A stretch of 63,183 bases of DNA, counting the filler, from Licmophora abbreviata (lineage: Eukaryota), in the NCBI GenBank assembly GCA_900291995.1. It is 4 parts of 4 records of this genome, joined end to end, with 100 filler letters (N's around TTAATTAATTAA, not from the genome) between each part and the next. Parts side by side here need not be neighbours in the genome. Positions count along the whole stretch, not along the records: positions 1 to 16,885 come from OLMU01003052.1; 3 more parts are not named here. The stretch is one strand, 5' to 3'. The stretch's first letter is position 1, and every line of letters begins with the position of its first letter. A model generated the notes under the pieces. It was not told the DNA's origin and made no database searches. It saw only the letters and a program-made list of their open reading frames with translations. Shown here one piece after another: positions 1 to 45,240 of the stretch. The position numbers and the translations under genes were made by a program.

Positions 1-807
1 CGGCTCTCGCTCTCGTCCTGTTCCGCTCCTCCGCTGGTACATGGGCATTCCTGGTCCGTGCCGGCGGGAACTCGATGAGTCCTGCCGCAGTACGATCTAG
101 TAGTGCGCATCGTTGGAACGCCTCGCCGACTGCATCGGAACATACAGAAGATTTGCTCAAGCCGTCCTATGAGATTGAACCTATTCCCATTCGTATAGGA
201 CATGGGTTTGATATTCACCGAATGGCACCGATTGGAGAAGCCGGTCAGCCTGTTGTAATTGGTGGAGTCGAAATTTCCCACAAGGATCAAAAAGTAAGTG
301 AGGACGAATCTATATGAGTGAGGCGAACTCGTCTCTTAATTTTGAACCCTTCCTATTCTTTAGTGGGTCGATAAGGATGGCAAGTATGTAGAAAAGGGGG
401 GCATCTATGAAACACAGTTGGGCGTCGTGGCGCATTCCGATGGAGACGTAGTGTACCATTCCGTAGTGGATGCCATTTTCGGAGCCCTCACGCTCCCCGA
501 CATTGGTCAAGTCTTCCAAGACACCGATCCACGATGGAAGGGGTGCGATTCTTCCAAGTTTATGGAACACGCTTGTACCGTCATGAAGGAGTATGGCTAC
601 AAGATTGGAAACCTGGATGTCACGCTCATTCTGGAACGCCCCAAGGTCGCCAGTTTCAAGCCGGCCATGAAGGAAAATATTGTAGACTTGTTGGACACGA
701 CGCCTGGGCGCGTCAATATCAAGGCGCGAACGCACGAGGAAGTGGATAGCGTGGGAGAATTGAGAAGTTTGAGTTGTCATGTCGTCCTCACGTTGGAACG
801 TGCATAA
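1..807 (+). CDS. ispF: 2-C-methyl-D-erythritol 2,4-cyclodiphosphate synthase, plastid-targeted (5' truncated; intron 294-363)
   Basis: RIGHGFDIH, AHSDGDVVYHSVVDAIFGA, DIGQVF and NIKARTHE motifs; a GT-AG intron at 294-363 joins the ORFs in frame; upstream frame reads ALALVLFRSSAGTWA-FLV, a signal peptide with F at +1. Confidence 0.96.
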
Positions 808-2546: not shown

Positions 2547-4672
2547 ATGGGAAATAAAGTATCGGTGAAGCTCAAGATCGAGCTGGAGGACGATCCGCAA
2601 GATGCATCTGGGCGCTTGCGGGCGTTGACAGAGGGAAGCGGTACGTTTCACAGACTATGGGGGCCATTGTTGACCATTAGATTCTTGGCGATTCTCTAAA
2701 CCAGACATCTCTTTTGCGACCCAGACCTGGTCTTTCCCGCAGGGACGTCGTTGAGAGGAGAGATCGTCATGGATGTACAAGAAGGCAATCGGCTGTTTGG
2801 AGGAGGAGGCACCTTGATGCTGCATGCTGTCGGGTTCGAGCGAACGGCCTTTACATCAGGAAAGAAAGCAAACAGTCGCGTCAGGTACGTAGGGCGTATA
2901 CGACTGTGATCTTCTGATCGTGCTGCTTGTTTGACAAGACTTGGAGCCTCCAACCCTCATCCCGTTCGTCCTCTCTTGCTCTCGTCAATTTGCGACAGCC
3001 ACCGTGAACGCGCCTTTTTCCAGTCGTCCATCAAACTTTGCCGCTGGAGCGTCGGTCGACGGGCTGGAACCTATAACTTCCCATTTTCTATTACTTTACC
3101 ACAGACTCTGCCCTCGACATTTTCACATGGATCAGAGAAAATGGGTTGTCAAATTGAAGTATGTAATATCGCGATCTAGCACCGGAGCGATGCATCTTAT
3201 GGGACAAACTCTCACAGCAATGTGTTACTTGCTCTTTCCTACAGTACATGCTCCGAGCTGCCTTTCGCAAAGATGAAAGAAGTCGTCAAATTCGTGTTGT
3301 ATCAGCTCCCATGCCCGACACGACCGTCCCATGCTTTCTGGAACCACAGACCGAAACGGTCAAGTCCTTGGGTGTCCGACGCGTCGGCAGCATTACCTTT
3401 GGAGCGGGAGTGAGTGATGCGCATGTTGGCAAAGGCCATGATCTGGAGTTATCGTTAGCCTGTCGTAACAATTCTGCTGTCAACATTCGGCATGTCAATA
3501 TCAAGCTAGTACAACTCGTCACCTGGCGCGCCACCAACAGACAAGTGGAGCAGTCTAAGGAAGTTCTTGTGTCCACAGAGGATCTGTCCCTTCCTGGGCT
3601 CATGACGGACGCAAATGATAGGAATGGCAGTGGAAATCTTGCTGGTAGTCGCGACTACCAAGCTATCTACAACTCATTGCGGTCACGCGATAACTTGATT
3701 CGTGTCCATGTACCCTCGGTAAGCGTTGTTGTTTCGGGCAGAGAATGTCGTGTTTTATCGAGACCTCAGCCCCGTCCTATAATTGCTCCTGCGTTCGTAA
3801 CCCAGACTGCAGAAGATACATATGAAGGTCGAATCCTATCAATTTCGCACTACATCAAGGTCTATCTTAATACGACGCGGTTTGTCAAGAATATTTCAAC
3901 CAAGATACCGCTTCAGATTGGAAATGCTCCGATTGATGGGTCATCCACGCAGACTCGACCGCCGACAGAAATCCTGCCGTCCCGCTTCGAGCAAGGTGCC
4001 TCGCAGCCCTCTCCAGTTCATGACATAGATCGACCATATCCTACAGCTCCGGTGGAAGAAGAGTATTTTGTGTCGTCGCCGTGTGTTCCGCCTTCGGCAC
4101 CAGTGGAAGACGAATTGAACGAGTACATTCCTATTGTTACGGCTGTCTCAATACCTGTTGGGAGCACCATCCATGCGCCGATTGTGGAAGTTCATGCGGG
4201 AGGCGTTGGTTTCGGTGGCAACAGTGAAGACGACGTGGTGCGACTTGTTACCGTTCCTTCTCCCACTCAACCTTCGGTTCCGGTTCTGCTCGAGGAGATG
4301 TCGAGAATGACCAACCACTTCGACAACCTTTCAACAAAACTAGGCAGCCGTAATTGGCGGCGCGTCCTCGAATCACTGTCTTCATTTCAGTTTGGACAGG
4401 TTATTGCAGCAGTCAGCATGGAGTTTGACCAGGTCAGAGTGGCCCGGCTACTGGCGCCACGCATTGAGAACGAGGGGAACGGATTCGCATGTATCTACTG
4501 TGTAAAAGCGCTACAAAACACAGCGCGGTGGAATCGTGTAGCCGTTGTTCAGCAGCTCCTACCACTATGCCGTGACCTCGAAACCAACCAGCGCTTGATT
4601 CGTGATGAGCTGACCGATTGGGAGCTGACTGTGTGTGATCGTGACTTCGAGAGTGCTTCGCCTCGGCGGTGA
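2547..4672 (+). CDS. Arrestin-fold (alpha-arrestin-like) protein with C-terminal helical domain, multi-exon
   Basis: MGNKV start; spliced exons give GTYNFPFSITLPQTLPSTF, LACRNNSAVNI..V.IKLV and ISHYIKVY..ISTKIPLQIG; introns begin at 2641, 2885, ~3159 and ~3719. Confidence 0.8.
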
Positions 4673-7876: not shown

Positions 7877-8216
7877 GGATTGTGACAACAAGGAGGAAAG
7901 GCGCACGCTTCATCACGCTGACTTTTAAAAGGCTTGTCGCAGCTCTAACGTGTAACACGCGATAGGCCAGCTATACGTTGCTAAACATATGGATGATGGC
8001 ATTCCTGAATCTGCAACCGATCTCGAAGCGATGGAGAGCTACTGACGCCCTGAGCTTTGATGATCTGTGGATTCAGACTGGACGACTCTAATGATACCTG
8101 GTACTTGTTTTAGGTCATACCGCTCGCAACGACTTGATCTCGTACCTAGCAATAGACATGGATATACAACACCGTGGTTCAGTCCGCGGCTATAGGCTAT
8201 AGGGTTTTCCTCTTAC

Positions 8217-8537
8217 TCATGAAGTCAGCAAGCTATTCCAGCAGCAACACGGACAGGCTTTATCCAGCGGACATTCCTTCTCCGGGATGGTATAGTTTTT
8301 AGTTCGACACTTTCGACATTTCCAAGAGTATGTGTTGGGCGCCAGTACGATTGCCTGTAGACAGTTCTCACAATGCCACTTCCCACTCCGCCCGGCAAAA
8401 TCTTCAGGTGGATTCTCCGGTGGGCTAGCAGTGCCTAGTCGCTGCGGCGGAGCGTCATCGGCACCACGAGGGGATGAGGAGTCACCATCACCCATCACCG
8501 CTGAGGGTGACGACGCGGATCCTTCTATTCTACCCAT
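8217..8537 (-). CDS. Small zinc-ribbon protein with Cys-rich C-terminus
   Basis: WHCENC...WKCRKC pair followed by CPLDKACPCCC; disordered N-terminus beginning MG. Confidence 0.55.
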   Translation of the reverse strand: MGRIEGSASSPSAVMGDGDSSSPRGADDAPPQRLGTASPPENPPEDFAGRSGKWHCENCLQAIVLAPNTYSWKCRKCRTKNYTIPEKECPLDKACPCCCWNSLLTS

Positions 8538-9114
8538 TGCAGTCGCGAATAATCTCTGAGTGATAAATGTGTCTCGGAATCCCTAATGATGGCGGTGGGG
8601 CTCTTCTCGCTTCATACTGACACCACCATGGTCAAACAGCATAGCTGATGCACCTATACACACTTCACAGAGACTGGTGCATACTCAAAGAGCGATCATC
8701 TCTCGCGTCGTTGTGTCGCGACAAAAAGATTCACTCAAAGATTCGGGGTCAGTCCGTCGCTACATCTTGATGCAATTTAGAGGCGATCTCGTCGCTAGCC
8801 ATCAGTAGACTGACGATCTATTCGACGCCTAAAGCCGATAACAGCTGTAAGCCCCTACAACTAACGATCATTTCGGAGTGTCACTCATGCCAGACTGTTT
8901 AGTACCTCTCGACCCGAAAGGCTTGAGTTACGTGGTACACAAACCCTCGTCAAACTGGGATCTATCGCGGTGCATAGACTATAGGTTTCAACTTTGTTTG
9001 CTGATGTTACATATGGCTGTGACTAAAATCAATTTGCGACTGCATAGTGTAGTTTTAGATATTTTTCATGTTACTTTGTTCTACTTATGTTCCAGGTGAG
9101 TGCTCGTCGTGCAG

Positions 9115-10986
9115 CTAATCACGAAGCTGATCTAGGAACTTCTGCCAGTGGAAGTGACCAAAATGCTGGCGAATACGAGTCGTCTGTGCCATGCTTCCTA
9201 CAAGTCCTTGCTCATGCTGATGTACATTGACTTGTTTCTGAGCCTCCTCAATCTCGTTATCCACAAGAGGAGCAGCCGTTGGGAGCTCCTTCAGAACTTG
9301 CCATCCCTCTGGAATCGATATCGCTTGAAGATCAGACGGAACCTCAGCATCACTCGGATTAATACGAATCATCTTGCCCAGCTCCTTGGCGTCCCGCGCA
9401 AAGGCTTCCACCGGAAATCTCGTCACCATGGGAGTGTTGAATCCGGCTCCAATCTCGATAACAACAACCTTTTTTCTAGAAGCAATCACTTGTTTCATCC
9501 ATTTCTGCAGAGCAACATTCTGTTCCTCAAATTTATTGTGGAGATACCATCCGCCGCCACGCACGTTTCCGAACACGGGACCACCACAATTCGGACACTT
9601 CGGCACGAGCTCTACAGGGATAAGACCATCCTTACTAATGTGAGGCAAAGCTTGGTCGAGGAAAGGGCGACTCTCAAACACTGAGTCTGGGCGGCATGGT
9701 TTCATGCACTGCAGGTACGTCCACTCTCCTTGGGGCGTGTAGATACGGTTGGCAGCGAAACTTCGCTCAAAGCACGCATCGACATTGGAGGTAAGGACGA
9801 AATGGTCCTTATGCTGCACCAGCTCCCGCAAGGACGTGTATCCCTCATTCGGTGGAAACTTCCAGCGCATGTTGTCCATGTGCTTGGCTTCAAATGCCCA
9901 CAGCGCCGTCTCAGGAACCGAGCGATCCCCAAGCAAACCCATAGCTTCGTACGCAGTCCGGTACCCCCACTTTGTAAACCATGGATAGTGTCGGGCGAAG
10001 TCGTCTGGGTTTGTGTAGACCATCTCACCCTCGTTCCCACTCATGCCCGCACCTGCACAAATTAACACAGCCTCAGCCTCATCAATCCATTGTTTGGCCA
10101 GACGGACAGTCGACGTTCGAGCATCGGTACGATTCCCTTCCTTATCAAGCTGCTTTCTATACAAGATTTCATCCTCTTCAGAGTATGTATCATACACAAT
10201 GGTATCAAACGGATATTCTGGATGCTGGTCTAACCATTCTTTCACGGCCTCAACAGCAATACGAGCCGCTCGTTCTTTGGGAAAACCGAACAGTCCGGTT
10301 GAGATCCCCGGAAAGGCAATGGAACGTACACCCCGGCTCGCCGCCGCATCGAGGGAGGACTGATAACAAAATGCGAGCTGCTTCTCTTGAGTGACTGTCG
10401 GCGTAGTACCCTGCTTTTCATCCATCTGAGGTCCGGTCACGTGTATCACATACCGACTGGGCAAATGAAAGCCATCCGTCAGAATAGGAGGAGTTCCGGC
10501 CCACAGAGGTGTCTCACGTTCCTGCATCGCCTGACGACACGAAATTCGAAGACGAGGTCCGGCCTGTCGGTGAATGACATTGTCCACGCACCTATGCCAC
10601 GGAACAAAGCAGCCGAGGCCTTGACTGTTGGCAGCGTTGACAATGGCATCCACCTTGAGAGTCGTAATATCACCACGCCACACAGTCAGGTTAGTCCCAC
10701 CATATGAGACTGTTGGCTTGAGCTGATTCAAGTGGACAACTTCTTTTTCTTCGTCGGCCCACACTTGATCGATAAGACGCAGGGTTTCGGCTTTCCAGTC
10801 CATGTTGGACTGAATCAAAGCATCACCGAGCAAGGAGCGCTGTTCATCCACAGTTTGGGGAAGCTGCTGTTGAGGATCACTCAGGAGAGAAGCTTCTTGT
10901 CGGAGGACTGCCAAGAGAGCTTCCTTGACGATGGATGTGTGCATGGTGGGCAGTCTCGTCGTCGTTGCCATCTTCATCATTGTCAA
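9115..10986 (-). CDS. Zn-dependent macrodomain / class M sirtuin (SirTM) fusion, Mfs1-like
   Basis: Macrodomain WRGDITTLKVDAIVNAAN, Zn loop GCFVPWHRCVDN, IAFPGISTGLFGFP; sirtuin GAGMS, TSNVD, TPQG (Q for catalytic H), CMKPC/CPNC, EIGAGFNTP; single exon. Confidence 0.93.
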   Translation of the reverse strand: MTMMKMATTTRLPTMHTSIVKEALLAVLRQEASLLSDPQQQLPQTVDEQRSLLGDALIQSNMDWKAETLRLIDQVWADEEKEVVHLNQLKPTVSYGGTNLTVWRGDITTLKVDAIVNAANSQGLGCFVPWHRCVDNVIHRQAGPRLRISCRQAMQERETPLWAGTPPILTDGFHLPSRYVIHVTGPQMDEKQGTTPTVTQEKQLAFCYQSSLDAAASRGVRSIAFPGISTGLFGFPKERAARIAVEAVKEWLDQHPEYPFDTIVYDTYSEEDEILYRKQLDKEGNRTDARTSTVRLAKQWIDEAEAVLICAGAGMSGNEGEMVYTNPDDFARHYPWFTKWGYRTAYEAMGLLGDRSVPETALWAFEAKHMDNMRWKFPPNEGYTSLRELVQHKDHFVLTSNVDACFERSFAANRIYTPQGEWTYLQCMKPCRPDSVFESRPFLDQALPHISKDGLIPVELVPKCPNCGGPVFGNVRGGGWYLHNKFEEQNVALQKWMKQVIASRKKVVVIEIGAGFNTPMVTRFPVEAFARDAKELGKMIRINPSDAEVPSDLQAISIPEGWQVLKELPTAAPLVDNEIEEAQKQVNVHQHEQGLVGSMAQTTRIRQHFGHFHWQKFLDQLRD

Positions 10987-11320
10987 TCACAAAATCGCGT
11001 TCCTTTATGTCGTGATGTCGTCGTGTGTTTGCAGTTTTGCTTTTGTGAGCCTTCCAAACTGCGCGCGAGCGTCGCGCGACGAAGCTCCGGGAACAGTGCT
11101 CTAGCGAATTCTTGAGTGCGTGTAGAATGCAACGTACGTTTTGTACCACGATGAAGAAACGACGGATGACAGACAGACAGAAGTTGGTGTGGCGCGCAAT
11201 ACAAGAATGGGTAATGGGCGAGCCTCCTGGATCCCGGCGGCGCGCCATGAAGAAAACGCAGGCGACGGCTCGACATCGCCGACCCTATCACAGTCTTTTT
11301 TCGTAGACTATCATACCGCG

Positions 11321-12574
11321 ATGTCTGCTATGATCGAGGAAGACTATCGCATTGCCTTGTACTACAGCTATGTGAAGATTTCGGATCTTCCCGAGCACAT
11401 CGCGTGGCACACGGAGCTGTGTCGTTCACTTGGTCTTTTCGGACGCGTCCGAGTCTCTCTCGAGGGCATCAATGGCGTGCTGAGTGGATTGCAAACTAGT
11501 TTGATCGAGTACGAGCAGAAGCTAAGTTTCTCGCTAGGATTTCAGTCGCCAGAGCAACTCGACGTCAAATACTGTAAGCTGCGGCCGGACCTGGCGGTCG
11601 AAGTGCAGCTGTTTGACACTCTGACAGTCAAGGCCACACCGGAAGTCATAAGTTTGTTCAATCCAAATGAGAATCAATCCCACATTACATCAAAGAGAAG
11701 GAGACGACGAAGAAAAGTAAAAGTGATGGACGATCAGGCAGATGGTGATTGTCCAGTCATGGATAAGGCCTCCCCACAAAGCATTGCGGCCATCAAGAAA
11801 CCACAAAATCTCGATTCCTATCCGGCTGCCCCTCATCTGACACCTCGCGAATGGCACGATCGACTTGCATCCTCATCCGACGACGTGGTTCTGATCGACG
11901 CGCGGAATGTTTACGAGAGCAACGTCGGTCGTTTCGAAGCCAAGGGTGCCACGACGCTCCTCACCAACACGCGCAAGTATGCCTCACTCCCCGACGTCCT
12001 CCAGCACTACAAGTCCGAGCTTTCCGACAAGCACGTCATGATGTACTGTACGGGAGGTATACGATGCGAGCGGGCGTCTGCGTACTTGCAACAAGTCGTG
12101 GAGTGCGACTGGGATCCGGAGGTCTTGCCTCCTCGAGGGATATATCAGCTGGAGGGTGGTATCCAGCGATATCTCGAGCAATACGGAACATCAGGGAACG
12201 ATGATTCTAGTAGCGGCGACATTGAGAATGACAGCCACAGTCGTTCGTCTTCTTCCATGTGTTTGTACAAAGGGAAGAATTTTGTCTTTGATCCGAGGCG
12301 GACCGATCCCATGCATGGCCGGGACGTGGCAGGTCGGTGCTTGTTGTGCGATACGCCCCATGACGACTATGACAATGGATATGCTCCCAACGAAAACAAG
12401 GAAGCACGCTGTAGTCGATGTCGGGTGCTGGTGCTGGTGTGTAACGAGTGTCGATCGAATGTACGAGCATGGGGAGAACACAAGGAGGACTCATTCCCGT
12501 CTCTATACTGTGGGAGGACAGAGTGTGTCGATCAAGGTAATTCATTGGATCAAGCAGTTTTGTTGCAGTCCTAG
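11321..12574 (+). CDS. Rhodanese-domain protein, TrhO/YceA (UPF0176)/TSTD2 family
   Basis: LYYSY, GRVRVSLEGINGVLSG, IDARNVYESNVGRF, MYCTGGIRCERAS, YQLEGGIQRY, GKNFVFDPR and C-terminal Cys cluster; start may be upstream (11141). Confidence 0.9.
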   Translation: MSAMIEEDYRIALYYSYVKISDLPEHIAWHTELCRSLGLFGRVRVSLEGINGVLSGLQTSLIEYEQKLSFSLGFQSPEQLDVKYCKLRPDLAVEVQLFDTLTVKATPEVISLFNPNENQSHITSKRRRRRRKVKVMDDQADGDCPVMDKASPQSIAAIKKPQNLDSYPAAPHLTPREWHDRLASSSDDVVLIDARNVYESNVGRFEAKGATTLLTNTRKYASLPDVLQHYKSELSDKHVMMYCTGGIRCERASAYLQQVVECDWDPEVLPPRGIYQLEGGIQRYLEQYGTSGNDDSSSGDIENDSHSRSSSSMCLYKGKNFVFDPRRTDPMHGRDVAGRCLLCDTPHDDYDNGYAPNENKEARCSRCRVLVLVCNECRSNVRAWGEHKEDSFPSLYCGRTECVDQGNSLDQAVLLQS

Positions 12575-12848: not shown

Positions 12849-15800
12849 CTATCTTTTAAGAGTGCGCTGCTTCTCAGCAGCCACTACCGTTCTGCTTGAA
12901 TCCACTAACAAGCCTTTTCGATCGCGAACTTTTCGTATGTACACGAGCGCGGTATTATCCAAACCAGTAGAGATATCACCGTTCACAATGATCTCACCGA
13001 AATCCTCGCGTTCCTCCAGCGACGTTGGAATCCAGAAAGGGTCCTCCTCCAGCCGTTCCCACTTCAGAAACGTTAGCTCAGGAACCGTCACTTCACCACT
13101 AGTCTTTGCCAACAGCTCTGGAGTCAGCCGAAACGACTCCGCCTGTGGGAGAGTCGCGGTGATGAGCAACAAGTCGGTGCCTTCCACCATGGAGTCTTCC
13201 AGGACTTTTCCACGTCGCCGAGATAGCACGCCATACAAAGATCCAAGACCTGCCAGTGACGAGTGAAGCGTCAGCTTCAAATGACTTTCCATCAGTCTGG
13301 CCGGTCTTGAAAGGAGTGCACAGCGGATTCCCTGCCGAAGAGCAGCAACTACCATCCCGCCACTCAACGGTTTGCTGCTCACAAGAGAATCGCCACGAGA
13401 CTGAAGAGCGACTTCGAAGCTTTCGAGAACGACAAGGACACCACGGATCGGCTCTTCACAGAGCGGGCCTGACCTCATCGCCATTTGAAATCCTGCAACA
13501 GCTGATCCACGCATTTTTGATGCCCATAAGTCCCCAGCGACAGCAGTTGGCTCGTCAAGAGGATTCGTGTGGTAATCGACTGGGCCAAGGAGTCCTCCAT
13601 TTTGTATGCGATCAAGAACTTCTTCATACTGTTCCTTTCCAGTAGTGGGGGCCTCAATTTGGTTGCTAGCTTCTTTGGACGGCAAATAAACTTCGTCCCC
13701 AAGAACGCTTGCCACACAGGATCCATTCGCAAGTCCTTTCGTTTCTAGAATTGCGTTTCCACCATTGTCCAAGTAGCAGAGTGTTTCCAAGAGTGTGTCC
13801 AAGACCTCTTTTGCTGTCTGCAACTTTCCAGAGCAACCCAGCGCCTCACCGAGACGCATAATCTCGCCCTCGCTTCCCTCGACTATATTGCGGTCCTTCA
13901 GGCTCAGGTGAACACATTCTACCAATGGAACGACCCGAAGTCCAACTGCGGCAAGCCGACCAGAAATAATCGCTCGCATTCTACCACGGTGGGCAAAGCG
14001 AACACCTTCTTCCTCACAGTAGGGCGGAATCATCGTCTGTCGAAGAGGCGACGCACTACGATCAGCAGAGAAGCCGGCATAGTCAGAAATCTCTGTTTCA
14101 AACCAGTCCGTCGTCTCGCCGAACTCCACAATTGGATCCGAGATTCGCAGCTCCATCTCTTTGCCGCAATAAATATTTTGGAGGTCGAGAATTGATTGTT
14201 CCAGATGAATCTCACCCAGACATGCCAGTATACGCTCGCCTTTGGCAGTGGCCGTCACCTCGACAGCCGCGTCTGCTAAACTAAGCTTGATCAGACCCCG
14301 CTCGAGGGCATCTGTGTCGGAGGCATTGATCGGCTCGACATTGACTTTTACCAATGGTCGAATCCCCCGGTCGAAACCTTGCAGTGGCATCCCTTCCGGA
14401 CTTTCGCACAATGTCACAGTCTTAAGTTGCAACTCTTCCAAGCCGTACACAGCACATAGATGACCCGCCGGTACTTCGTCAACACGGACAAACGATGACC
14501 CCATGAGAAGGTATAGTCTTATCTTTCGCGTCGATTCGGAGGATCTAAACGTGTGTTTTGGACCCATCCAGAAGTAAGAGTCGTCGGTTCGTAGTGTCCC
14601 ACATAGTACGCGCGCTACCCCCAGAATCAGGTGCGTCTGCTCTTTTGGATCCATCAACAGTTCTGAATCACGAATACAACTGGGGTCGGTCGATACAAAC
14701 TTTCCAACGTGCGCCACCGCGGACCCCGATGGATCGCACGCTTTACAGCCGATTGGATCACACGAAAACCATCCGTCGCTGATGCCACCTCTGGCTCTCG
14801 CAGGGCCAAAGCTCGTGTGCGTACCTTTCCCACGGCGACGTCCGGCGAAGGCCCATGCTCGCACACAGCATCCAAAACACAACTGCTGAGCGGTCGATAT
14901 CTCCGTAACAGTGACCGCAGTACCGCTACTTCTGTCGACGAACCAGTGTTGTTCAAAATCTCCTGAAGCGCATCAAGTGATGCAGGAATATTATTTTTGG
15001 ATCCGGTGCCTCCCACTTGCATGGCTGTCAACACATTTTCCATCCCAGGAGCACTGCTGTTCAGTTTCGCCTCCTTTGGGGAGTCCGTTGTGCCACCATT
15101 CGTGTCGTGATTGCCGTACTGACTGGTTGTACCATACGACGCTCTTCCGTCTGCAAAGAGCTCCGATCCCACTCCCGTCGCTACTGCCGCGGATGCCACA
15201 CCTTCGTACATGTCCCAGATCGGCCGGAGTGCATACATGGCAAACAACGGCAACTCGTCGTCGTTCTGCTTCCACTTCAAAAGTTTGCCCTCTCTGTACT
15301 TAAAATCACCAAAGAAGTACTGCTTCAGCACCAATGGCTTGATCGCAATGACTTTGGAACGAAATAAGGTTCTGGCGAGAGAAGGTACCGTAAACCCCCA
15401 ACCATGGTAGGCAGAAGCAAACACTACATTTCCTTGGGATGGATCAAACGTCCATCGCTTCTCCTGTTCTGTGGGAGCAGTTTCATCCGGATCATCGTCA
15501 CCCGCACTAGATCCATCGAAGGCTTTATCGTGTTGCCTTTCGTGTTCATCATCGGCACTTTTGGATACCAACATGGCTGCCGTCGCTGCGTTGACCGATT
15601 CCACCAAGTTTCGTAACCGCCCATAGGCTTCTATTGGAGTCAAGCACAAATCTGTACACAGTCGATCGACCTTGTTCAATACGAGGATAGGCACCAGCTC
15701 GTGTACATAGGCCTCGCGTAAAACTTGATGTGTTCGTGCACACATGCCCTCGACGACATCAATGACCAACAAGGTAGCATCACAGCAGAGCAAGGCGGAA

Positions 15801-16111
15801 CTAACTTCCGGGGCAAAATCAGTATGTCCCGGAGAATCCAAGAGGTGCAGTACCATGGACTGTTGCGGTGCCTTTGCACTGGCTTGATAACTATGTCGTA
15901 GTCCAATAGCAGAAGTTCGCATGGTAATACCTCGGCGCTGTTCTTCCTCCATGCTGTCGAGATACCGTAACGTTCCCGCCAGACGTTCGGAGATGATGCC
16001 ATTGGCTTCAATCAGATTGTCCGCCAGGGACGTCTTTCCGTGGTCCACTTGAGCAATGATGGTCACCAGCCTTGCTTGAGGAGGAGGTGGAAAGATGGAC
16101 GAAGATGACAT
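12849..16111 (-). CDS. EFL1: Elongation factor-like GTPase 1 (Ria1); 1-nt frame break at ~14743
   Basis: AQVDHGKT, RYLDS.EEEQRRGITM, DSPGHTDF, NKVD, GEIHLE, GPLCEEP, DPFWIPTSLEEREDFG and the EFL1-type ending AEKQRTLKR; the two ORFs join if one A is added (VK-ACDP). Confidence 0.93.
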
Positions 16112-16443
16112 GTTGGTGGCTGATTTTATTTGAACTTGATTCGTGCCAAACAAAATCCCATGGTGCCGGTACTAAACGATCGCTGCATTTCCAACAATTG
16201 AAATTGGTGGCCGTCCAAAGGCACGATTCAGATGGCTGCGGGCCCGATTGACATTTTCAGGTGCGCACTGAGGAGCGCCAAACCTGTGAGCGGCGTTGCC
16301 CGCGCGCAGCCAACGTCATTCGACCAAATTCAATACTATGAACCATGACGATACGAAGATGCATGGAATGTGTTAGACGACTAGATACATGCCTATACTC
16401 CTCGCCCAAACTGTGATAAAAGCATCGATTGCATCACCCAACT

Positions 16444-26704: not shown

Positions 26705-28210
26705 CTATTGGATCGAACAATCACGGCGTAGCCTTGACCGGGTCCGCCTACCACGGTGGCGGCTTGCACTCGCTTCGACGGGTGGAGAGACTGGAGTACC
26801 GTTAGCAACCACTTGTGTGCATTCAGGCACATCCACTGGGAGCGTTGCAGAATTGCTCACGAACTCCACGTTGACATCAATTTCCTCAGTCTGAAGCTCA
26901 TCATCATTCCATGATGAAACATCGTCGTCGTCAAAGCTCGAACTGTCTGGGGCTACCACAGCGTCAGCAAATGGCACCGAAATATCGTCCTGTTCGACCA
27001 CAATGGGCATGGCGGGAACAACCTGTGCATCTCCATCACTAGTGTCACTTCCTCCATCTCTTGCCGCACTCACATGCAAGGGAATCTTGACCGACACATT
27101 ATTCACAGTCCTTGCTTCGGTGCGAAAGTACATCTTCAAGTAGTGCGATATTGTGACATTGGTACCTGAATGGGACTCGCGGGCATGGGAAGGGATGCGA
27201 AGCTCGATTGTATTCTGCGGATTCTCGAGTCCGATGGCAATCTCATTTCGGTTCGCAGCATTCAGGTCGACGTTGTCCCGCAGATTCTGTTTCACTTGCA
27301 ACGCTGATAACTTGTCTCGTTGCAGCCCCGGCAAGGCAAAGGTCATATTTCGATGTTTGGCTAGTGTTCGTTTCCCACGCGACTTCTCATTGAAGGCTGT
27401 CCATTGGAAATGCTCGACAAGTTTCCAGTCGACGCATTCAATGTTGGTCGAGGAATTGTTGCGGCAGGCGAGGGTGATCTCCACTACATCTCCCTTTGTC
27501 ACATACGAGTTGGTACATTTGACTCCGTAGGAGATGCTGCCAATCTGTTTGAGTCCAAGGCTCTTGATGCGTACAGTGTGAGGTTCGAGTATAACTGGAT
27601 GGATGGGTCGTGGTAAGGGTGCCGCATGGACTCGAAAATACCGAAAGAGACGTTGATTTCCTAGTGTGCAATAGATCAAGTACTGCACCAGACATCCATT
27701 CGGCAGTTTGCCGTAGAAGACGGACGAAGGAAGCGCGACGGGCAATCTCACAGAAAATGGAAAGACGTGCATCCCCTTGTCGAGGGAGGACACCGACGAG
27801 TCTTCGGTGGTGTCCTGCAGTAGTATTCTTTCCTTTCGAAAGAACACTTGACATTCTCGTAGAATCCGGTTGGTGCTGATCGGAACGGAAGTTTGCTCTT
27901 GGCCGACAATTGTGAGAGTAAGGTCCGAGTGATGAACGACACGACGAACATCCACCAACACGCTTCCCTTCATTTCGGTACCGGCGGTAAAGTCCAAGTT
28001 TCCTAAAGAAACAAGAAGGAAGACGATATGGTCAGCAAGGGAGTTAGTAAAATTCTTTCCTATTGTTATGAGGGCAAGAACGCAGGCGCGTCGCACACTG
28101 CAGTGACGATGATGTGTTCTCCCATTATGAATTCGAAACTCACCTAGACGGCACGAAGGTCTTTCTCTCTCATGATCCAGCTCGATACCGAGCCTCACTT
28201 GATTCAGCAT
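26705..28210 (-). CDS. Arrestin-fold protein, paralogue 2 (in-frame intron ~28003-28143)
   Basis: GMHVFPFSVRLPVALPSS, LACRNNSSTNI, ISHYLKMY..VSVKIPLHV; similar to 2547-4672 but lacks the C-terminal helical domain. Confidence 0.8.
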   Translation of the reverse strand: MLNQVRLGIELDHERERPSCRLGEFRIHNGRTHHRHCSVRRACVLALITIGKNFTNSLADHIVFLLVSLGNLDFTAGTEMKGSVLVDVRRVVHHSDLTLTIVGQEQTSVPISTNRILRECQVFFRKERILLQDTTEDSSVSSLDKGMHVFPFSVRLPVALPSSVFYGKLPNGCLVQYLIYCTLGNQRLFRYFRVHAAPLPRPIHPVILEPHTVRIKSLGLKQIGSISYGVKCTNSYVTKGDVVEITLACRNNSSTNIECVDWKLVEHFQWTAFNEKSRGKRTLAKHRNMTFALPGLQRDKLSALQVKQNLRDNVDLNAANRNEIAIGLENPQNTIELRIPSHARESHSGTNVTISHYLKMYFRTEARTVNNVSVKIPLHVSAARDGGSDTSDGDAQVVPAMPIVVEQDDISVPFADAVVAPDSSSFDDDDVSSWNDDELQTEEIDVNVEFVSNSATLPVDVPECTQVVANGTPVSPPVEASASRHRGRRTRSRLRRDCSIQ

Positions 28211-28608
28211 GGAGAAATGGGATGAAATTGGAGTTCTAATGAGCTGGGATAGACTTCGTTCGCAATTTGCTATCAACAACAGTGTAAGGAATGCAAAGCT
28301 GTGTTGTACGATACTCCGAGTATGCTGTATTGTCGATGTGATGGAATGCAAAAGATGAGAATCTCATCTCGCGTCACGCTGGAAGAATCGAGTCGAACGA
28401 TTCGAAATGACTCCGCGCAGATCTTCGCGCGATCGATGGAAGTCTGAATTACATCCGGGTCTGCATCCGCACTTTTTTCGTCTTCTGCGAAACGGTGAAG
28501 TTGCACCAACTTTGGATCTTTCGAGATGGAGATGCTCCTCCTATCGCGATCACAAGGCACTTTTTCATCGCAGACGAAGGAATCAAGCGTAGATCGTTCG
28601 GCTGAGAC

Positions 28609-36404: not shown

Positions 36405-38190
36405 CAGTCACCGTTCTCTCCCACTCACTAAGCTCCGCATGAATCAAACCAAAAGACACAGACAAGTCTCGACAGAATGGTAGCAGACGTTCCACCATGG
36501 CAGAACGATTCCAATCAGCCGTATTCTTCAATGCAGCCACACAAAAATGGCAAGTAAAATTGTCTCTACCATTGAGGAGTGGAGCCAACAGGACTGCAAC
36601 TCGGGGCTGATCGTGGTCCATGTTCACATGCCCAATAACACTTCCGAACTGTTGTGGTGTTAAACTTTCAAACACGAGTCGCCACGCAGGGTGTTGCATC
36701 TTTGAAGCGATGATTTCGCAGTCATTGATTGACGCCACCATTTCTTCTAGTAGACTAGCGAAAGAAGGGATGGTGGGAGGTGGCACTGGAACAATGTTGA
36801 CTAGCTGAGCACTTGGTTGTGGCGCGGCCGAGTCGTCCATCTCCCTCCCTCCAATAACAGTTGCTTCGCTTAGCGGAAGTAGAACAGACACGCCAGATAG
36901 ATCAATTCCCTCTGTATCGTCAGGGGCTGGTACCGCCGCAATCATTGGGACGTCCTGCGAGATTCGAAGCGCTGGTGCCGAGGCCCCCGTCGACGGGAGA
37001 CGTGGCAGGAAGGGCGTCGCAGTCTGCGACAATAACACTGGTGGAGTGCCGATTCGAAGTGGAATCTTCGTAGACAGATTATCCGTCATTTTCTTCGTGT
37101 TGAGATAGATCTTTAAGTAGTGCGTAATTGAGAGTACTGTGCCGACGTAGGTATCTCGAGCCCCCTGTGTTGTTGTTATGGGCAAAGTATGTTCGTGAGT
37201 GGCAATGACGACAATCATCAATATCTACAGAGGACGACCCACGACTTACTTCTGGAATCCTGAACCGAATCCTGTTGTTTGGGGATCGTAATGCATTATA
37301 AATTGGGAGGTAGTTAGCATTGTGGACTTCCGCAATCGACTCCTGTGATCTTGGTATGGATGACCTTGGCATTCCATCCGTTAGTAGTCCCGGAAGATTC
37401 ACATTTTGCTGTTGGAACAGTTCTCGCTTATTGCTTGCTCCCCTTCCCCGAGCAGTCCATTCGCAGAGCTCAACAAGCTTGATGTCTACATTCTGAATGT
37501 CTACAGAAGCGTTGTTGAGACAGGCCAGTGACACTTCGATCCATGATCCCTTGCCCACGTGGGTATCTGTGACTCCAGCGGCAAATGTTACGGCACCTTC
37601 TCCCTTTCCAAACGTTTTAATCTCCGTCGTTCGAGGCTCGAGAAAGCACGGAACTTGAACGTTTGGCAAAGGCGCTGACTTGATTTTCACTGCAGTCCTT
37701 GGCCCGTGCACGCTCCCTATACTGGCTTGGGCCTTGTAACGTACCGTGCAATGGCTCCCCCCAATCTCCACGTATGACGAGGCCGGCAAGGAGTCTGGTA
37801 AGTTTACGGAAAACGGAAAGTAATGGGTCCCCGGGTCAATGTATTGATTGCTCAGATCTTGCAAGACCAGCTGCGTCTGGAAGAACTGTCGAGAGCCCCA
37901 GAAGCCGTCTTTGCCTCGCTTCACGAAGCTTTTTTCCTTGCCATGGAGCACGACAACTATCGGGGCTCCTGCCACTCGCTTTTTCACGACTGCCGTCACA
38001 CGCCCTCTCAGTGGATATCCTGCACGCCGGACTGTACGTGATCGAGAAGTTAGGCAATGTGTCAGCGCCACTGCGAAGCGAAAGTATTTATTGCTTCCGA
38101 AAGTCGTTCATCATCGCGCAAAATATCATTCGTACCATCCAGACCATCGTCTCGCTCAAACGTGACAGACAGAGCCACTGCATTCCCCAT
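36405..38190 (-). CDS. Arrestin-fold protein with C-terminal helical domain, paralogue 3 (two introns; 3' truncated)
   Basis: MGNAV start, GTHYFPFSVNLPDSLPAS, VPCFLEP, DTHVGKG, LACLNNASV, ITHYLKIYLNT; C-terminus closely matches 2547-4672 (DQPRVAVLLAP, WNRSAMVERLLPFCRDL, ELSEWE). Confidence 0.82.
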
Positions 38191-41586: not shown

Positions 41587-44500
41587 TTAATCGGTTGGTT
41601 CGCAGTCGCTGCAGCATGCGCATGCAAACCGGTCGCAGTCGACAAGCACTTCTTCCAACAAGTGCGTCTCCACGAGCTCACAAACTTCATCGGGCATGAC
41701 TCCTCCCAATAAATTGTCTTCCAGATCGAGAGAGATGAGATTGAGTAGTTGGCCGAACTCAGTGGGGATAGTTCCTCGGAGGTCGTTGTCGATCATCCAC
41801 AGCAGCTCTAGATTGACTAGCTGACCAAGTTCAGTGGGAAGCGTCCCATCGATAGAATTGATTGATAAGTCCAGCGCCAAGAGGTTTCCTAGATTTCCAA
41901 GCTCCGTGGCAAGGCTTCCTGTGAGCGTGTTGTTCGCTAGCCACAGCCCTTCTAGTTGCGTAAGGAGTCCAAACTCGCTAGGAACAGTTCCGAATAATGA
42001 GTTTCCTTCCAGCGTCAACTCAAGCAGTAGCCTCAGGTTACCCCACTGGGCCGGGATTGTACTAGATATCCTTGCGTTATCGAGAAACAAGATCTCGAGA
42101 TTCGTAAGGAGACCATACTCGCTCGGCAACTGTCCATTCACGAGAGTGAAGTCTAGATCGAGTTGGCTCAGTGACGAAAGTGTCGAGAACTCTATGGGGA
42201 GCGTTCCACTCAAGCCGGTCTTGAAGCCGCTAAGAATCTCCAAGTTACCCAGGAGCCCAATCTCTGATGGCAGCTGGCCGGAAATATCCGATTCTCCCAA
42301 ATAGATTTCGACGAGCGCAGACATGTCACCAATCTGAGTTGGGACCGCGCCAGTGAACAAGTTTCCTTCCAGAACAAAAGATTGCAGTTTCGTCAAATTC
42401 GAAACAGAGGGCGGAATAGCTCCCGACATCGAATTATTCCACAAGGACAAGGTTCTCAGTCCGACAAGATCACCAATCCATGAGGGGATAGCGCCCAGGA
42501 CCCTGTTGCCAGTGACATCAAACACTTGTAACGCGGAAAGTAGATATAAGTCCGTAGTTTCGAGACTCCCGTCCAAGCCGTTGCCGCTCAGATCCAAGCT
42601 CAACAACTCATCTTTGACGCACACCGCAGTGTCCAAAGGTACATTGAACCACTCGCACTCGTTGGTATCGGAAAGCCATCCGTCTGAAGAGATCCAGACT
42701 TCGTCGCCGCGCGTCGCATAGTACAGAGTCGCAAGTGCGTAGCGCTGCAATCGACGCGAACTCGAGTATGTATCCAACATAGCGGACATCTCCAACCACC
42801 GAAATGCTTTTGCCTGCGGCGAGTCTGGGTCGTCCAGCAAGGCCTGCAACGATTCTGGTTTCAGTCGAGCTCTCAGAAGTGCTTCTACGGAGTCAAACTC
42901 AGTGCTGGACGAATTCGTGCCTGTACAGCCAGTACAGCATTCACACTGAACTGAATCACAGTCGACAAGAATTTCTTCCAGAAGATCCGTTACCGTCAAC
43001 GCGCACACTTCATCTGGCATATTCCCGCCCAGATTAGTGTCTTCAATGTCAAACTCCTCGAGACTCGTGAGCCTGCCAAACTCAGTAGGCACTGTTCCTT
43101 GAAGGGGATTGTTGTAGAGCCACATGAACCGCAAAAAGGCAAGATTTCCAAGCTCTGTCGGCAGCGTTCCGTTAAGAGAATTCAATCCCATGTATAAGAA
43201 GGTAAGATCATCCATGCTTCCGAATTCCGTGGGTACGGTTCCCGTTAGATTGTTTGTCGCTAGCGCAATATCCTCCAGAGATCTACAAAGTGCAAGCTCG
43301 GTTGGAATAGTTCCGTACAGCTGGTTACGTTCCATAGTCAAATCGCGTAACGATATCATGTTCCCCCACTCGCTCGGAATTGTGCTGACTAGTCCTGCAG
43401 CATCGATGTAGAGTGTTTCAAGGTTCTGTAGCAGTCCAAGCTCTGTCGGCAGTTCTCCTTTCACAACAGTTTCGTCCAAGTTAAGAACAATCAGAGACGA
43501 CAAATTCGAAAATTCCACGGGGATTGTGCCGCTCACATCGCTCGCTAGTACGTCGAATACCTCCAAGTTTGTCAAGAGACCAAGCTCGGACGGGAGCTGG
43601 CCCTCTAGATTCGTCTCGCCAAAGTAAAGATCTAGCAAACTCGACAGACTACCGAGTTGAGAAGGAACTCCACCAACAAAGAAGTTCGCTTGCAGGTCCA
43701 AAAATTTGAGGCTTTCCAGCCTCAGGAGAGACATTGGGATCAGCCCAGACATAAGATTTTTCCAAACAATGAGATTCTGGAGTTGTGAGAGATCACCGAT
43801 CCATGAGGGAATGAAGCCAGTCACAGCATTGCTGGTAATGTCTATCACTTGCAAGGACGACAACAGATACAAGTCCGCATTTTCGAGTCTTCCTTCCAAT
43901 CGGTTGCTGACAAGCTCCAAGTTCGTGTATGTTCCATTAGAGCATGCTTCGCCGTCCGCTGTCGTGTACCATTCACATTCATCAGTGTCCGACATCCAAC
44001 CGTCAGACGAAACCCAAACATCTGCGTCGCCACGAGTTTCAAAGTAAAACGTTGCTAGCGCGTACCGCTGTAGGCGACGTCCTTCCGAGTAGCTCTTCAA
44101 ATCAGGCGAGTCTCGTAACCATCGAAAAGCTTTCCTTTGTGACGACCCTTGATTACTTATCAATGATTGCCTTGACTGTTGATTCAGCTTGGATAATAGC
44201 AGTGTCCCCAGAGGACCATCCAGTTCATCACCAGGGCGCTCTCCCCCACCTCCTCCTCCGGGGGGCATGGTTCTCTCAGGCCCTGGATCTGACGATTCCT
44301 CTTCTTCATCACCGCCACCGCCTCCCGACAATCCAACGACCAGCCCCACGATGGTCCCAATGAGTACAATTGCGACGATTGCAAGAACAATTCGAACTGA
44401 CCGGTGTTTGAGGAGTTGGCGTACCGAGTGCATAGCCGACATGTCCTCCATTGGCGTTGCCTCAATAATTTTGGAGGATTCTCTCGATACTACGGGAGCT

Positions 44501-45240
44501 TCTCGCTGCCGTGAAACACTGTTGTCCACCAGCTCCGCATTGACGACATGCGGGGAGGTGCTCTCACCAGTCAGGTTGCTGTTGGAGTCTTCAGGTGCAG
44601 CATCATCGGGTAATTGAGACGCACTTGTCGCCGTGGGCCCCCTGACTTGAAACGCCCCTGGGGAGGAAACGCCACCGCCACCGCCCCGCTCCAAGCGCGG
44701 TGGGAAGGAAGCCAATATTTCTGTCTGACTTCGGATCAAAGGGTGTGCATCTGGAGCTTCAGCTCCTTCCTCGACTTTCTCTTCGTCTATCACGGCACTT
44801 TGCTTTTTGCTTTCCCCTACTGTTTCGTCGGAAATCACTTTTTTCAGGTCTCCATCGACAAGTTCAGTAAGAGAAACTCCAGCGGCCGCCGCTTTTTCAA
44901 ACTCTTCCGTAGCTTCTTGTCTGCCAGAGCTCACTTTCTTTATCCCTCCGTCAACCTGCATTTCACCCGATCTGTCAGTTTTGCAATTTTCTTTCTTAGC
45001 ACTGTCTTCCTTCTCAGCGTCGAGTACGTACGACACTGCCTGATGACGCAATGCAAGGGTCTCCGCTGACGGTCTTCGGTCATCACTTCGTCTAGTCGTG
45101 TCCTCCGATACCGAATCTCCTTCTTCAGCGCTCTCCTGGATTTCATCAGGTGCACTTGGCTCGTTAGGTGCACTGGGCTCGTCAGGATCAGGCGCTTCTT
45201 CCTCTTCAGGCGACTTTTCGCTGCCGTTCCTGTTCTCCAT
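41587..45240 (-). CDS. Type II membrane LRR receptor-like protein with two tandem LRR ectodomain modules
   Basis: Disordered N-terminus, TM IVLAIVAIVLIGTIVGLVVGL, two QRYALAT..GW.SD..ECEW caps, 24-aa plant-type LRRs (N.L.GTIP.ELG.L) and CxxxxCxCCxxC end caps; no kinase domain. Confidence 0.92.
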   Translation of the reverse strand: MENRNGSEKSPEEEEAPDPDEPSAPNEPSAPDEIQESAEEGDSVSEDTTRRSDDRRPSAETLALRHQAVSYVLDAEKEDSAKKENCKTDRSGEMQVDGGIKKVSSGRQEATEEFEKAAAAGVSLTELVDGDLKKVISDETVGESKKQSAVIDEEKVEEGAEAPDAHPLIRSQTEILASFPPRLERGGGGGVSSPGAFQVRGPTATSASQLPDDAAPEDSNSNLTGESTSPHVVNAELVDNSVSRQREAPVVSRESSKIIEATPMEDMSAMHSVRQLLKHRSVRIVLAIVAIVLIGTIVGLVVGLSGGGGGDEEEESSDPGPERTMPPGGGGGGERPGDELDGPLGTLLLSKLNQQSRQSLISNQGSSQRKAFRWLRDSPDLKSYSEGRRLQRYALATFYFETRGDADVWVSSDGWMSDTDECEWYTTADGEACSNGTYTNLELVSNRLEGRLENADLYLLSSLQVIDITSNAVTGFIPSWIGDLSQLQNLIVWKNLMSGLIPMSLLRLESLKFLDLQANFFVGGVPSQLGSLSSLLDLYFGETNLEGQLPSELGLLTNLEVFDVLASDVSGTIPVEFSNLSSLIVLNLDETVVKGELPTELGLLQNLETLYIDAAGLVSTIPSEWGNMISLRDLTMERNQLYGTIPTELALCRSLEDIALATNNLTGTVPTEFGSMDDLTFLYMGLNSLNGTLPTELGNLAFLRFMWLYNNPLQGTVPTEFGRLTSLEEFDIEDTNLGGNMPDEVCALTVTDLLEEILVDCDSVQCECCTGCTGTNSSSTEFDSVEALLRARLKPESLQALLDDPDSPQAKAFRWLEMSAMLDTYSSSRRLQRYALATLYYATRGDEVWISSDGWLSDTNECEWFNVPLDTAVCVKDELLSLDLSGNGLDGSLETTDLYLLSALQVFDVTGNRVLGAIPSWIGDLVGLRTLSLWNNSMSGAIPPSVSNLTKLQSFVLEGNLFTGAVPTQIGDMSALVEIYLGESDISGQLPSEIGLLGNLEILSGFKTGLSGTLPIEFSTLSSLSQLDLDFTLVNGQLPSEYGLLTNLEILFLDNARISSTIPAQWGNLRLLLELTLEGNSLFGTVPSEFGLLTQLEGLWLANNTLTGSLATELGNLGNLLALDLSINSIDGTLPTELGQLVNLELLWMIDNDLRGTIPTEFGQLLNLISLDLEDNLLGGVMPDEVCELVETHLLEEVLVDCDRFACACCSDCEPTD

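Follow-up and report, generated by a model that had tools for sequence, protein, structure and literature searches.

Signalling by class M sirtuins (SirTM) together with zinc-type macrodomains (Zn-Macro) has been investigated as a pathogen trait, and its single known substrate is the bacterial protein GcvH-L. The fusion of the two enzymes into one polypeptide was named Mfs1 in 2015, when forms from Phytophthora and Entamoeba were already listed (Rack 2015, PMC4518038); these forms have since been cloned and the Fusarium oxysporum structure 8RSN has been solved (Ariza 2024, PMC11490716). The substrates of all fused forms are described as unknown in PMC11490716 and PMC13720257. Here we analyze a gene of this type in a 63,183-nucleotide stretch of DNA from Licmophora abbreviata (assembly GCA_900291995.1), which consists of parts of four records joined end to end and is referred to below as the window. 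We consider the gene to encode a diatom member of the Mfs1 family (i.e. a macrodomain-fused SirTM), probably a cytosolic two-enzyme protein that has been inherited within the ochrophytes, and we assign this reading a probability of roughly 0.85.

Three kinds of described system invite comparison. The fungal Mfs1 proteins (Foc1Mfs1, 8RSN; Candida albicans CaMfs1) share with the diatom protein the helical bundle, Zn-macrodomain, linker and SirTM in one polypeptide, as well as the Cx4HxC, Dx3H, QG, Asn/Arg and Cys4 residues. Unlike them (identity ~29-36%), the diatom protein falls in a separate, well-supported clade, has Ile58 in place of Foc1Mfs1 Cys61 and Gly54 in place of the Arg found in most, carries one additional residue after GAGMS and an extension (residues 575-623) that is absent from 8rsn, and is predicted to have a different domain arrangement (root-mean-square deviation, rmsd, ~15 on the whole chain). 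The extended operons of Streptococcus pyogenes and Staphylococcus aureus (5A3A, 8RSM, 5KIV/8RSL), with lipoylated GcvH-L, employ the same two enzyme families and the same Zn-loop motif; Asn118, Gln137 and Arg192 of the streptococcal SirTM correspond to Asn401, Gln419 and Arg476 of the diatom protein, and the folds superpose with Z scores of 27.8-33.8. In contrast to the single diatom chain, the operon enzymes are encoded by separate genes, the SirTM identity is ~23%, Arg42 and Asn46 of the bacterial macrodomain are not kept in the diatom protein, and no GcvH-L, LplA2, OYE or LLM gene lies near the diatom gene among the window open reading frames (ORFs) scanned. The minimal pairs of Clostridium, Competibacter, Streptomyces, Ruegeria, Synechococcus and Asgard archaea (of which MorMacro, 8RSI, has been solved) resemble the diatom protein in sequence (38-42% identity for SirTM and 38-49% for the macrodomain), in a gene order equal to its domain order, and in that GcvH-L/LplA is not nearby. 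They differ from it in being two genes, unfused in 76 of 76 loci, in having no C-terminal extension, and in a tandem SnoaL-like gene (49 of 80 loci) that has no counterpart in the window.

A macrodomain and a class M sirtuin in one open frame

The sequence leading into the frame reads TGA TTG ACA ATG ATG AAG ATG; TGA stands immediately before TTG, which is codon 1, and ATG first appears at codon 3, where the coding sequence is likely to start (Table 1). The frame aligns without a break with full-length homologues, so that no intron is required, and the gene is present in a single copy in the window (tblastn; remaining matches have E >= 1.7). The preliminary description of this locus had proposed an intronless fusion of a macrodomain carrying the Cx4HxC loop CFVPWHRC at 10588-10611 to a sirtuin of class M with the catalytic His replaced by Gln (TPQG). 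The single frame, the loop at exactly these coordinates and the glutamine, which aligns with Gln137 of SpySirTM, all agree with it.

The top match of the protein in the PDB is Fusarium oxysporum Mfs1 (8rsn; E 3.1e-92, residues 95-550), which was also the first Foldseek match. An AlphaFold2 (AF2) model was generated from 61 aligned fusions, with a mean predicted local distance difference test (pLDDT) of 93.4 and a predicted template modelling score (pTM) of 0.66.

The N-terminal half is a zinc-type macrodomain. Macro is the sole Pfam family matched in the protein (residues 116-244, E 9.7e-30), and the top NCBIfam model, NF003163 'protein-ADP-ribose hydrolase', covers residues 22-283 with positions 9-263 of its 265 (E 6.2e-71). 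PDB sequence matches to this half are 8rsm SpyMacro (E 1.1e-48, residues 67-285), 8rsi MorMacro (E 1.3e-44, 41-280) and 5kiv SauMacro (E 9.1e-40, 67-283), and model residues 14-282 superpose on the whole of MorMacro, bundle included (Z 34.2, rmsd 1.8, 256 residues). The hallmarks of Zn-Macro proteins given in PMC11490716 (NAAN, a Cx(4)HxC Zn-loop replacing the glycine-rich catalytic loop, Dx3H, and an N-terminal three-helix bundle) are all present in the diatom protein. Across the 61 aligned fusions, Cys126, His131, Cys133 and His139 are invariant, NAAN is invariant or nearly so, and Asp135 is kept in at least 90%.

The C-terminal half is a SirTM. Searched alone, it has two matches at E <= 1, 8rsn (4.1e-38) and 5a3a (1.1e-18), among the 177,635 distinct sequences of the PDB, with no class I-IV sirtuin among the matches at this threshold; Pfam SIR2 gives no match in the protein at E <= 1 either. 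By search matches rather than by a tree, this half thus appears closer to SirTMs than to classes I-IV or U. In a PDB search with the full protein, SpySirTM 5a3a is found at E 2.6e-18 over residues 296-527, and model residues 288-574 superpose on it with Z 27.8 (rmsd 2.5, 274 residues). The correspondence of individual residues relies on the phmmer alignment, in which the 5a3a chain numbering equals the residue number + 10, as verified on the N-A-D triplet. Gln419 is invariant in 61 of 61 aligned fusions and in all ten rows of an alignment with prokaryotic SirTMs. Mutating any of Asn118, Gln137 and Arg192 in SpySirTM 'dramatically decreased' activity, and the Q137H exchange abolished it (PMC4518038).

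Gln419 also bears on the alternative of a sirtuin half that deacylates lysine and a macrodomain that clears the O-acetyl-ADP-ribose so produced, a metabolic coupling with no protein ADP-ribosylation switch. MacroD-type domains are known as O-acetyl-ADP-ribose deacetylases (from PDB entry names), and NCBIfam models of such deacetylases match with E 2.3e-41, although their cut-offs are missed by a wide margin; the sirtuin half, for its part, matches an NCBIfam deacylase model weakly (E 2.3e-7, 30 bits versus a cut-off of 243). However, because Gln419 stands at the position of the general-base His of deacylating sirtuins, ADP-ribosyl transfer rather than deacylation is to be expected. SirTMs are reported to have no appreciable deacylase activity (PMC4518038). 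With this glutamine in all 61 aligned fusions and no canonical sirtuin matched in the PDB at E <= 1, we regard a deacylase as quite improbable and favor a SirTM that would act as a transferase.

Several points weigh against a functional writer and eraser in one Mfs1-type chain. The whole-chain fit of the model to 8rsn is poor (TM score 0.42-0.48, rmsd ~15), which, together with a pTM of 0.66, renders the relative placement of the two halves uncertain. The NF003163 score of 238.9 bits is below the equivalog cut-off of 272; a sub-cut-off score with a full-length match is what would be expected of a distant eukaryotic fused form. Transferase activity has been shown for bacterial SirTMs, whereas the published accounts of Mfs1 describe the phenotype of its deletion in Candida and assay the macrodomain for hydrolase activity but, where they deal with Mfs1, contain no assay of the SirTM domain. 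Moreover, Mfs1-type macrodomains were unable to demodify GcvH-L (PMC11490716), and the analogy to the GcvH-L system drawn in the preliminary description is correspondingly weak. Finally, Arg42 and Asn46 of SauMacro stabilize the Zn-loop, and Fusarium Cys61 is equated with Asn46 (PMC11490716). In the diatom protein these columns (fixed by Fusarium Cys61) are occupied by Gly54 and Ile58, and since these replace the stabilizing residues, zinc occupancy of the macrodomain may be weak. The Foc1Mfs1 crystal was without macrodomain zinc, and the protein held ~75% less zinc than SauMacro (PMC11490716).

These last points would fit a macrodomain that has lost stable zinc in the algae and serves mainly to read ADP-ribose or to regulate the protein intramolecularly, in which case the chain would not be a true writer/eraser pair. 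The replacement of Arg42/Asn46 extends throughout the ochrophyte clade described below, the fungal Cys61 variant already has low zinc, and deletion of the helical bundle, the element on which Gly54 and Ile58 lie, abolishes zinc binding in SauMacro (PMC11490716). On the other hand, the zinc ligands, His139 and Asp135 are conserved as given above, and the near-invariance of NAAN points to selection on catalysis. Fungal Mfs1 macrodomains, furthermore, hydrolyze ADP-ribose from Glu/Asp-modified PARP1 E988Q in a zinc-dependent manner (PMC11490716). We therefore consider a loss of stable zinc unlikely and retain the assignment of two enzymes in one chain.

Table 1. Features of the Mfs1-type gene and protein; positions are those of the window.
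Feature	Position	Strand	Basis or remark
Open frame, 623 codons	9115..10986	-	ORF list and stop-to-stop listing, stops on either side
Likely coding sequence, Mfs1-type protein, 621 aa	9115..10980	-	first ATG 10978-10980, stop TAG 9115-9117
Three-helix bundle of Zn-macrodomain, residues 17-78	10753..10938	-	AF2 helices 17-31, 46-59, 66-78; carries clade-specific LLGDxLI, Gly54, Ile58
MacroD-type macrodomain core, residues 93-283	10138..10710	-	Pfam Macro, NCBIfam, PDB, superposition
NAAN motif, Asn117-Ala118-Ala119-Asn120	10627..10638	-	sequence and alignment
Zn-loop Cx4HxC = CFVPWHRC, residues 126-133 (Cys126, His131, Cys133)	10588..10611	-	sequence and alignment
Dx3H motif, Asp135...His139	10570..10584	-	sequence and alignment
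Interdomain linker, ~residues 281-296	10099..10146	-	pLDDT dip, block 281-290 = 68
SirTM domain, residues 297-574	9265..10098	-	PDB matches 5a3a, 8rsn; VIA superposition
NAD-binding GAGMS, Gly312-Ser316, then clade-specific one-residue insertion (GNEGEMVY)	10039..10053	-	alignment
SNVD motif; Asn401 = SpySirTM Asn118	9778..9789	-	alignment to 5a3a
TPQG, residues 417-420; Gln419 at catalytic His position = SpySirTM Gln137	9727..9738	-	alignments
Four-Cys structural zinc site, small domain: Cys427, Cys431, Cys464, Cys467	9586..9708	-	invariant in 61 fusions
NVR motif; Arg476 = SpySirTM Arg192	9559..9567	-	alignment to 5a3a
C-terminal extension, residues 575-623, three helices, end ...GHFHWQKFLDQLRD	9118..9264	-	helices 576-592, 599-609, 614-622; pLDDT > 90

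Distribution and phylogeny of the fusion

A search with the full protein returned 330 proteins at E <= 1e-10, and the best 120 of these 330 were examined. Among them, the best match is metagenomic (63% identity). Two-domain proteins among the matches listed come from the diatoms Seminavis robusta (annotated 'Protein-ADP-ribose hydrolase') and Nitzschia sp. Nitz4, from other ochrophytes (Phaeomonas, Chrysophaeum and Discosporangium), and from Acrasis, Capsaspora, three chytrids and several ascomycetes; none of the best 120 is labelled Phytophthora, Entamoeba or Candida. Look-ups added Stauroneis and a Pseudictyota-like protein for the diatoms, as well as two-domain proteins of Salpingoeca urceolata, Soliformovum, Leptophrys and Dermamoeba. 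The fusion is accordingly found in at least five eukaryotic supergroups, with Rhizaria and amoebozoans among its holders. The preliminary description had referred to it as a fungal form: the kinship to fungal Mfs1 holds, as the 8RSN match indicates, but the fusion is not confined to fungi, being present in Phytophthora, Entamoeba, diatoms and others. A scan of metagenomes with the protein yielded one 1,084-bp contig (L081; 58% identity over residues 234-581, unbroken, flanks absent), and nothing in the ESM Atlas matched beyond Macro clusters of ascomycetes and 'deacetylase' clusters of bacteria. Nine sequencing runs, each with a share of 0.15 or less and none of them of RNA, were also listed; four of them yielded two to four short contigs each (151-262 nt), with no joints and none reaching across the gene, which bears on neither expression nor habitat. 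We found no literature joining SirTM or Mfs1 with diatoms or stramenopiles, outside the supplementary taxon tables of PMC4518038 and PMC11490716, which may name algae.

In prokaryotes, the two enzymes were mostly found side by side. A scan of species-representative genomes gave 533 relatives, from which 80 loci were kept (L001-L080). In 76 of them, a Zn-macro homologue lies within 4 kb of the SirTM gene, always on its strand: directly upstream in 57, downstream in 16, and more than 1 kb upstream in three. None of the 76 loci has a fused Zn-macro/SirTM gene. The eukaryotic protein has its domains in the order in which the genes commonly stand in prokaryotes (Zn-macro, SirTM). Between the window SirTM and the free-standing SirTM-like proteins of Cohnella, Lokiarchaeota/Promethearchaeota, Photobacterium, Streptomyces and other prokaryotes, identity is 38-42%, and the motifs GAGxS, SNVD, TPQG, NVR and GAGFNTP are shared, as are the four Cys. 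Pfam searches of 64 neighbouring ORFs from 20 of the prokaryotic loci revealed no GCV_H or lipoate ligase.

Quick IQ-TREE runs (LG+C20+F+G4) were made for the SirTM domain, the macrodomain and their concatenation, with 48 eukaryotic fusions (46 rows from the 120 listed matches, plus the window protein, plus two cluster members). For the prokaryotes, each combination of genus and gene arrangement is represented by a single locus, which gives 33 loci out of the 76, and the SirTM tree contains in addition four prokaryotic SirTM-like proteins; Staphylococcus, Streptococcus, Methanobrevibacter, oomycete, Entamoeba and Candida are without rows. In the SirTM tree (85 rows, 268 columns), the window protein is sister to database protein P0002 within a clade of 14 rows in which only diatoms are named (approximate likelihood ratio test, SH-aLRT, 96), and this clade is nested in a larger one of 32 rows that also contains Phaeomonas, Chrysophaeum and Salpingoeca urceolata (support 100). 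The macrodomain tree (81 rows, 271 columns) again places the window protein in the diatom 14-row clade and recovers the large clade with 31 rows and a support of 96; in the concatenated tree (81 rows, 537 columns) both the diatom clade and the large ochrophyte clade have a support of 99. A second clade, comprising fungi, Capsaspora, amoebozoans, Acrasis and Leptophrys, is supported at 99 (SirTM) and 97 (concatenated), and Discosporangium is unplaced on a long branch. The macro and sirtuin halves have travelled together. The Salpingoeca urceolata sequence, a transcriptome protein with a choanoflagellate label (P0043), lies inside the ochrophyte clade in all three trees, which could reflect a transfer or a prey or contaminant sequence.

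Since both domain trees place the protein inside a supported diatom/ochrophyte clade, they argue against the horizontal acquisition that the preliminary description had thought possible, at least as a recent event from a bacterium or fungus into this diatom lineage. Such a transfer could explain why the gene is a single exon next to neighbours with apparent introns, and why named diatom homologues are patchy among the best 120 of 330 matches. Seminavis, Nitzschia sp. Nitz4, Stauroneis, Fragilaria and Pseudictyota are the only diatom genera named for the fusion in the matches listed and the look-ups, with no fusion row from Thalassiosira, Skeletonema, Cyclotella, Pseudo-nitzschia, Cylindrotheca or Fistulifera among the best 120 of 330. 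Matches to a neighbouring GTPase gene, by comparison, also include Thalassiosira, Skeletonema, Cyclotella, Cyclostephanos, Cylindrotheca, Pseudo-nitzschia, Epithemia and Fistulifera. The patchiness, however, fits loss equally well; it suggests repeated loss of Mfs1, weakly, as about 1/4 of the database proteins carry names. The nearest relatives of both domains are fusions of diatoms and other ochrophytes, and none of the 76 prokaryotic loci is fused; the GC content of 0.50-0.52 at 8001-12000 is like that of the surroundings (0.48-0.55 over the whole window), and the derived signatures shared across the clade speak for long residence. A recent transfer is thus very improbable and not supported by these data; the gene was inherited within ochrophyte algae. 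Judged from its sequence, the locus is confirmed as an algal member of the known Mfs1 family, and neither a new kind of system nor a recent arrival.

Inheritance within the ochrophytes leaves the deeper origin of the fusion to be considered. The ochrophyte fusion (clade A) may have arisen apart from the fungal and amoebozoan Mfs1 (clade B), each through its own acquisition of a prokaryotic pair and perhaps its own fusion event. Both clades are strongly supported (100 and 99 for SirTM, 99 and 97 in the concatenated tree), and in the best SirTM and concatenated trees they are not sisters, with prokaryotic pairs standing between them on an unresolved backbone. The window SirTM is 38-42% identical to prokaryotic stand-alone SirTMs versus 31-36% to the ascomycete rows, clade A bears signatures of its own, and repeated fusion would be easy because the prokaryotic gene order is already the domain order. 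Yet holding all eukaryotes together costs only 5.7 log-likelihood units in the SirTM domain (approximately unbiased test, p 0.383), so that a single eukaryotic SirTM clade is not rejected. The starred branches permit a single origin in all three trees, the eukaryotes of the macrodomain tree need only two changes, and the trees are quick ones with the row selection given above. The present data do not discriminate between one and two ancient origins for the eukaryotic fusion, and we hold separate origins to be possible, if on the doubtful side; they concern origin only and are compatible with the same biochemistry.

The algal clade differs from fungal Mfs1 at Gly54/Ile58, in the insertion after GAGxS and in the C-terminal extension of ~50 residues. 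In the bundle, the algal motif is R-x-LLGD-x-LI, compared with R-x-LLRALL[T/N][V/I]R in prokaryotic pairs and ...LLC-x-R in ascomycetes. The NAD loop after GAGMS reads G-N-E-G-E-M-V-Y, compared with A-A-A-G-x-D-Y, and is one residue longer, and the sirtuin half has PQGEW for PQGDY and VTRFP for V[IV]RWP. The extension closes with GHF[D/H]W-x-x-FL-x-QL, where Trp614, Leu618 and Leu621 are conserved at 90% or more among 12 members of the clade that were aligned, and it is not covered by the aligned solved relatives, of which 8rsn stops at model residue 570 and 5a3a at 574. The rebuilt interface of bundle and Zn-loop (Gly54/Ile58), the insertion in the NAD loop and a structured extension of three helices with a nearly invariant Trp at its end could point to a target and regulation different from those of lipoyl-GcvH-L. 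We speculate that photosynthetic stramenopiles (diatoms, pelagophytes and pinguiophytes) have their own fusion lineage, one that arose from a prokaryotic pair separately from fungal Mfs1 and with such a different target and regulation. If true, this would be an unstudied redox- or stress-linked ADP-ribosylation switch in algae.

Predicted activity and target

By homology, the class M sirtuin half would bind NAD+ and mono-ADP-ribosylate a target protein on one of its acidic residues, and the macrodomain zinc held by Cys126, His131 and Cys133 would hydrolyze the resulting Asp/Glu-ADP-ribose ester again, so that writer and eraser would be present within one chain. A neighbouring acylated lysine may be needed for the transfer, as in the bacterial GcvH-L system, or this may not apply. 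The first bundle helix begins at residue 17 with ~14 residues ahead of it, nothing before the bundle resembles a signal peptide or presequence, several orthologues begin right at the bundle, and a hydrophobic stretch is absent (peak 15-residue hydropathy of 1.13 in the first 75 residues); on these grounds the protein is probably cytosolic. Eukaryotic lipoylated proteins are organellar. A lipoyl-protein target is therefore argued against for a presumably cytosolic fusion, and the target might instead be a cytosolic protein with another lysine acylation. A role in redox stress is suggested by analogy to Candida mfs1 and the bacterial (Staphylococcus) operon (PMC4518038).

The family, its fold and its likely chemistry have already been described, and the gain is to that extent incremental; novelty lies in how widely the family occurs among free-living eukaryotes and in the traits derived within the ochrophyte clade. 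With its inheritance among marine algae that live freely and its occurrence in five or more eukaryotic supergroups, the fusion weakens the 'pathogen' framing of this signalling. Non-pathogenic, ecologically important organisms become available for substrate discovery, and the algal-clade signatures provide concrete mutants for testing.

A SnoaL-like/NTF2-like gene recurs beside the prokaryotic pairs. A hidden Markov model built from seven SnoaL-like neighbours detected it in 49 of the 80 loci (e.g. L046:2110-3048, L041:2140-2982, L066:1907-3046, L075:2154-3065 and L003:5798-6622), with the ORF on the SirTM strand in 46 of the 49 and E < 1e-60 in 44, which are of a tandem two-domain type. The usual order is SnoaL2, Zn-macro, SirTM; some Streptomyces have SirTM, SnoaL2, Zn-macro. 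The nearest Atlas clusters to the SnoaL-like protein are all bacterial, none of 924 window ORFs matches the profile, and the words 'SnoaL' and 'NTF2' are absent from the main texts of Rack 2015 (PMC4518038) and Ariza 2024 (PMC11490716). The protein may be a partner or substrate of the 'minimal' SirTM systems that lack GcvH-L.

Host and neighbouring genes

A diatom host, which the preliminary description had called probable, is supported independently of the fusion gene by sequence matches of its neighbours. An EFL1/ribosome-assembly GTPase is encoded at 14654-16171; among its 120 listed matches 17 are organism-labelled, and all 17 are diatoms, with Nitzschia sp. Nitz4 (62% identity) and Seminavis (61%) nearest among these; the best of the 120 matches listed has 66% identity. 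IspF/YgbB, an enzyme of the methylerythritol phosphate (MEP) pathway, is spread over two frames at 3-804 (+), which fits an intron and a plastid-bearing host. The eukaryotic genes of the window include arrestin-like, SPX-EXS, COG4, PHD, Tim17, SNF2/HSA, U3-associated protein 6 and EFL1-like GTPase genes, and several of the window genes were taken as intron-bearing because their coding parts lie in two or three different frames. A contamination of the assembly with bacterial DNA was considered and discarded in view of the eukaryotic flanks, the uniform GC content and the eukaryotic fusions as nearest relatives.

The preliminary description had seen no GcvH-L or lipoate-ligase gene nearby, and our scan for GCV_H and lipoate-ligase domains likewise gave none in 124 window ORFs. 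To the 35 ORFs of at least 200 aa in the whole window were added 89 smaller ones (75-199 aa), out of 117 of that size with a start before 24 kb; the 28 others of the small set either overlap the Mfs1-type gene in other frames (10) or lie beyond 21.6 kb (18). Clustering of partner genes would not be expected in a eukaryote.

The Mfs1-type gene is flanked on one side by a UPF0176/rhodanese (TrhO-like) gene at 11141-12574 (+), which is divergent from it. Because at most ~160 bp separate the two open frames, a shared promoter region is possible. Just downstream of the Mfs1-type gene lies a 106-aa ORF (8217-8537, -) with CxxC...CxxC pairs and no Pfam match. Arrestin domains occur in three separate genes, at 3167-4672 (+) together with 2910-3176 (+), at 26705-28363 (-) and at 37079-38107 (-), within 35 kb of the joined window. 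The ORF at 61134-62750 (+) contains two stretches of PqiA (paraquat-inducible protein A), a bacterial-type membrane family, in a diatom nuclear context, and a leucine-rich-repeat protein is encoded in one open frame of 1,239 codons at 41587-45306 (-).

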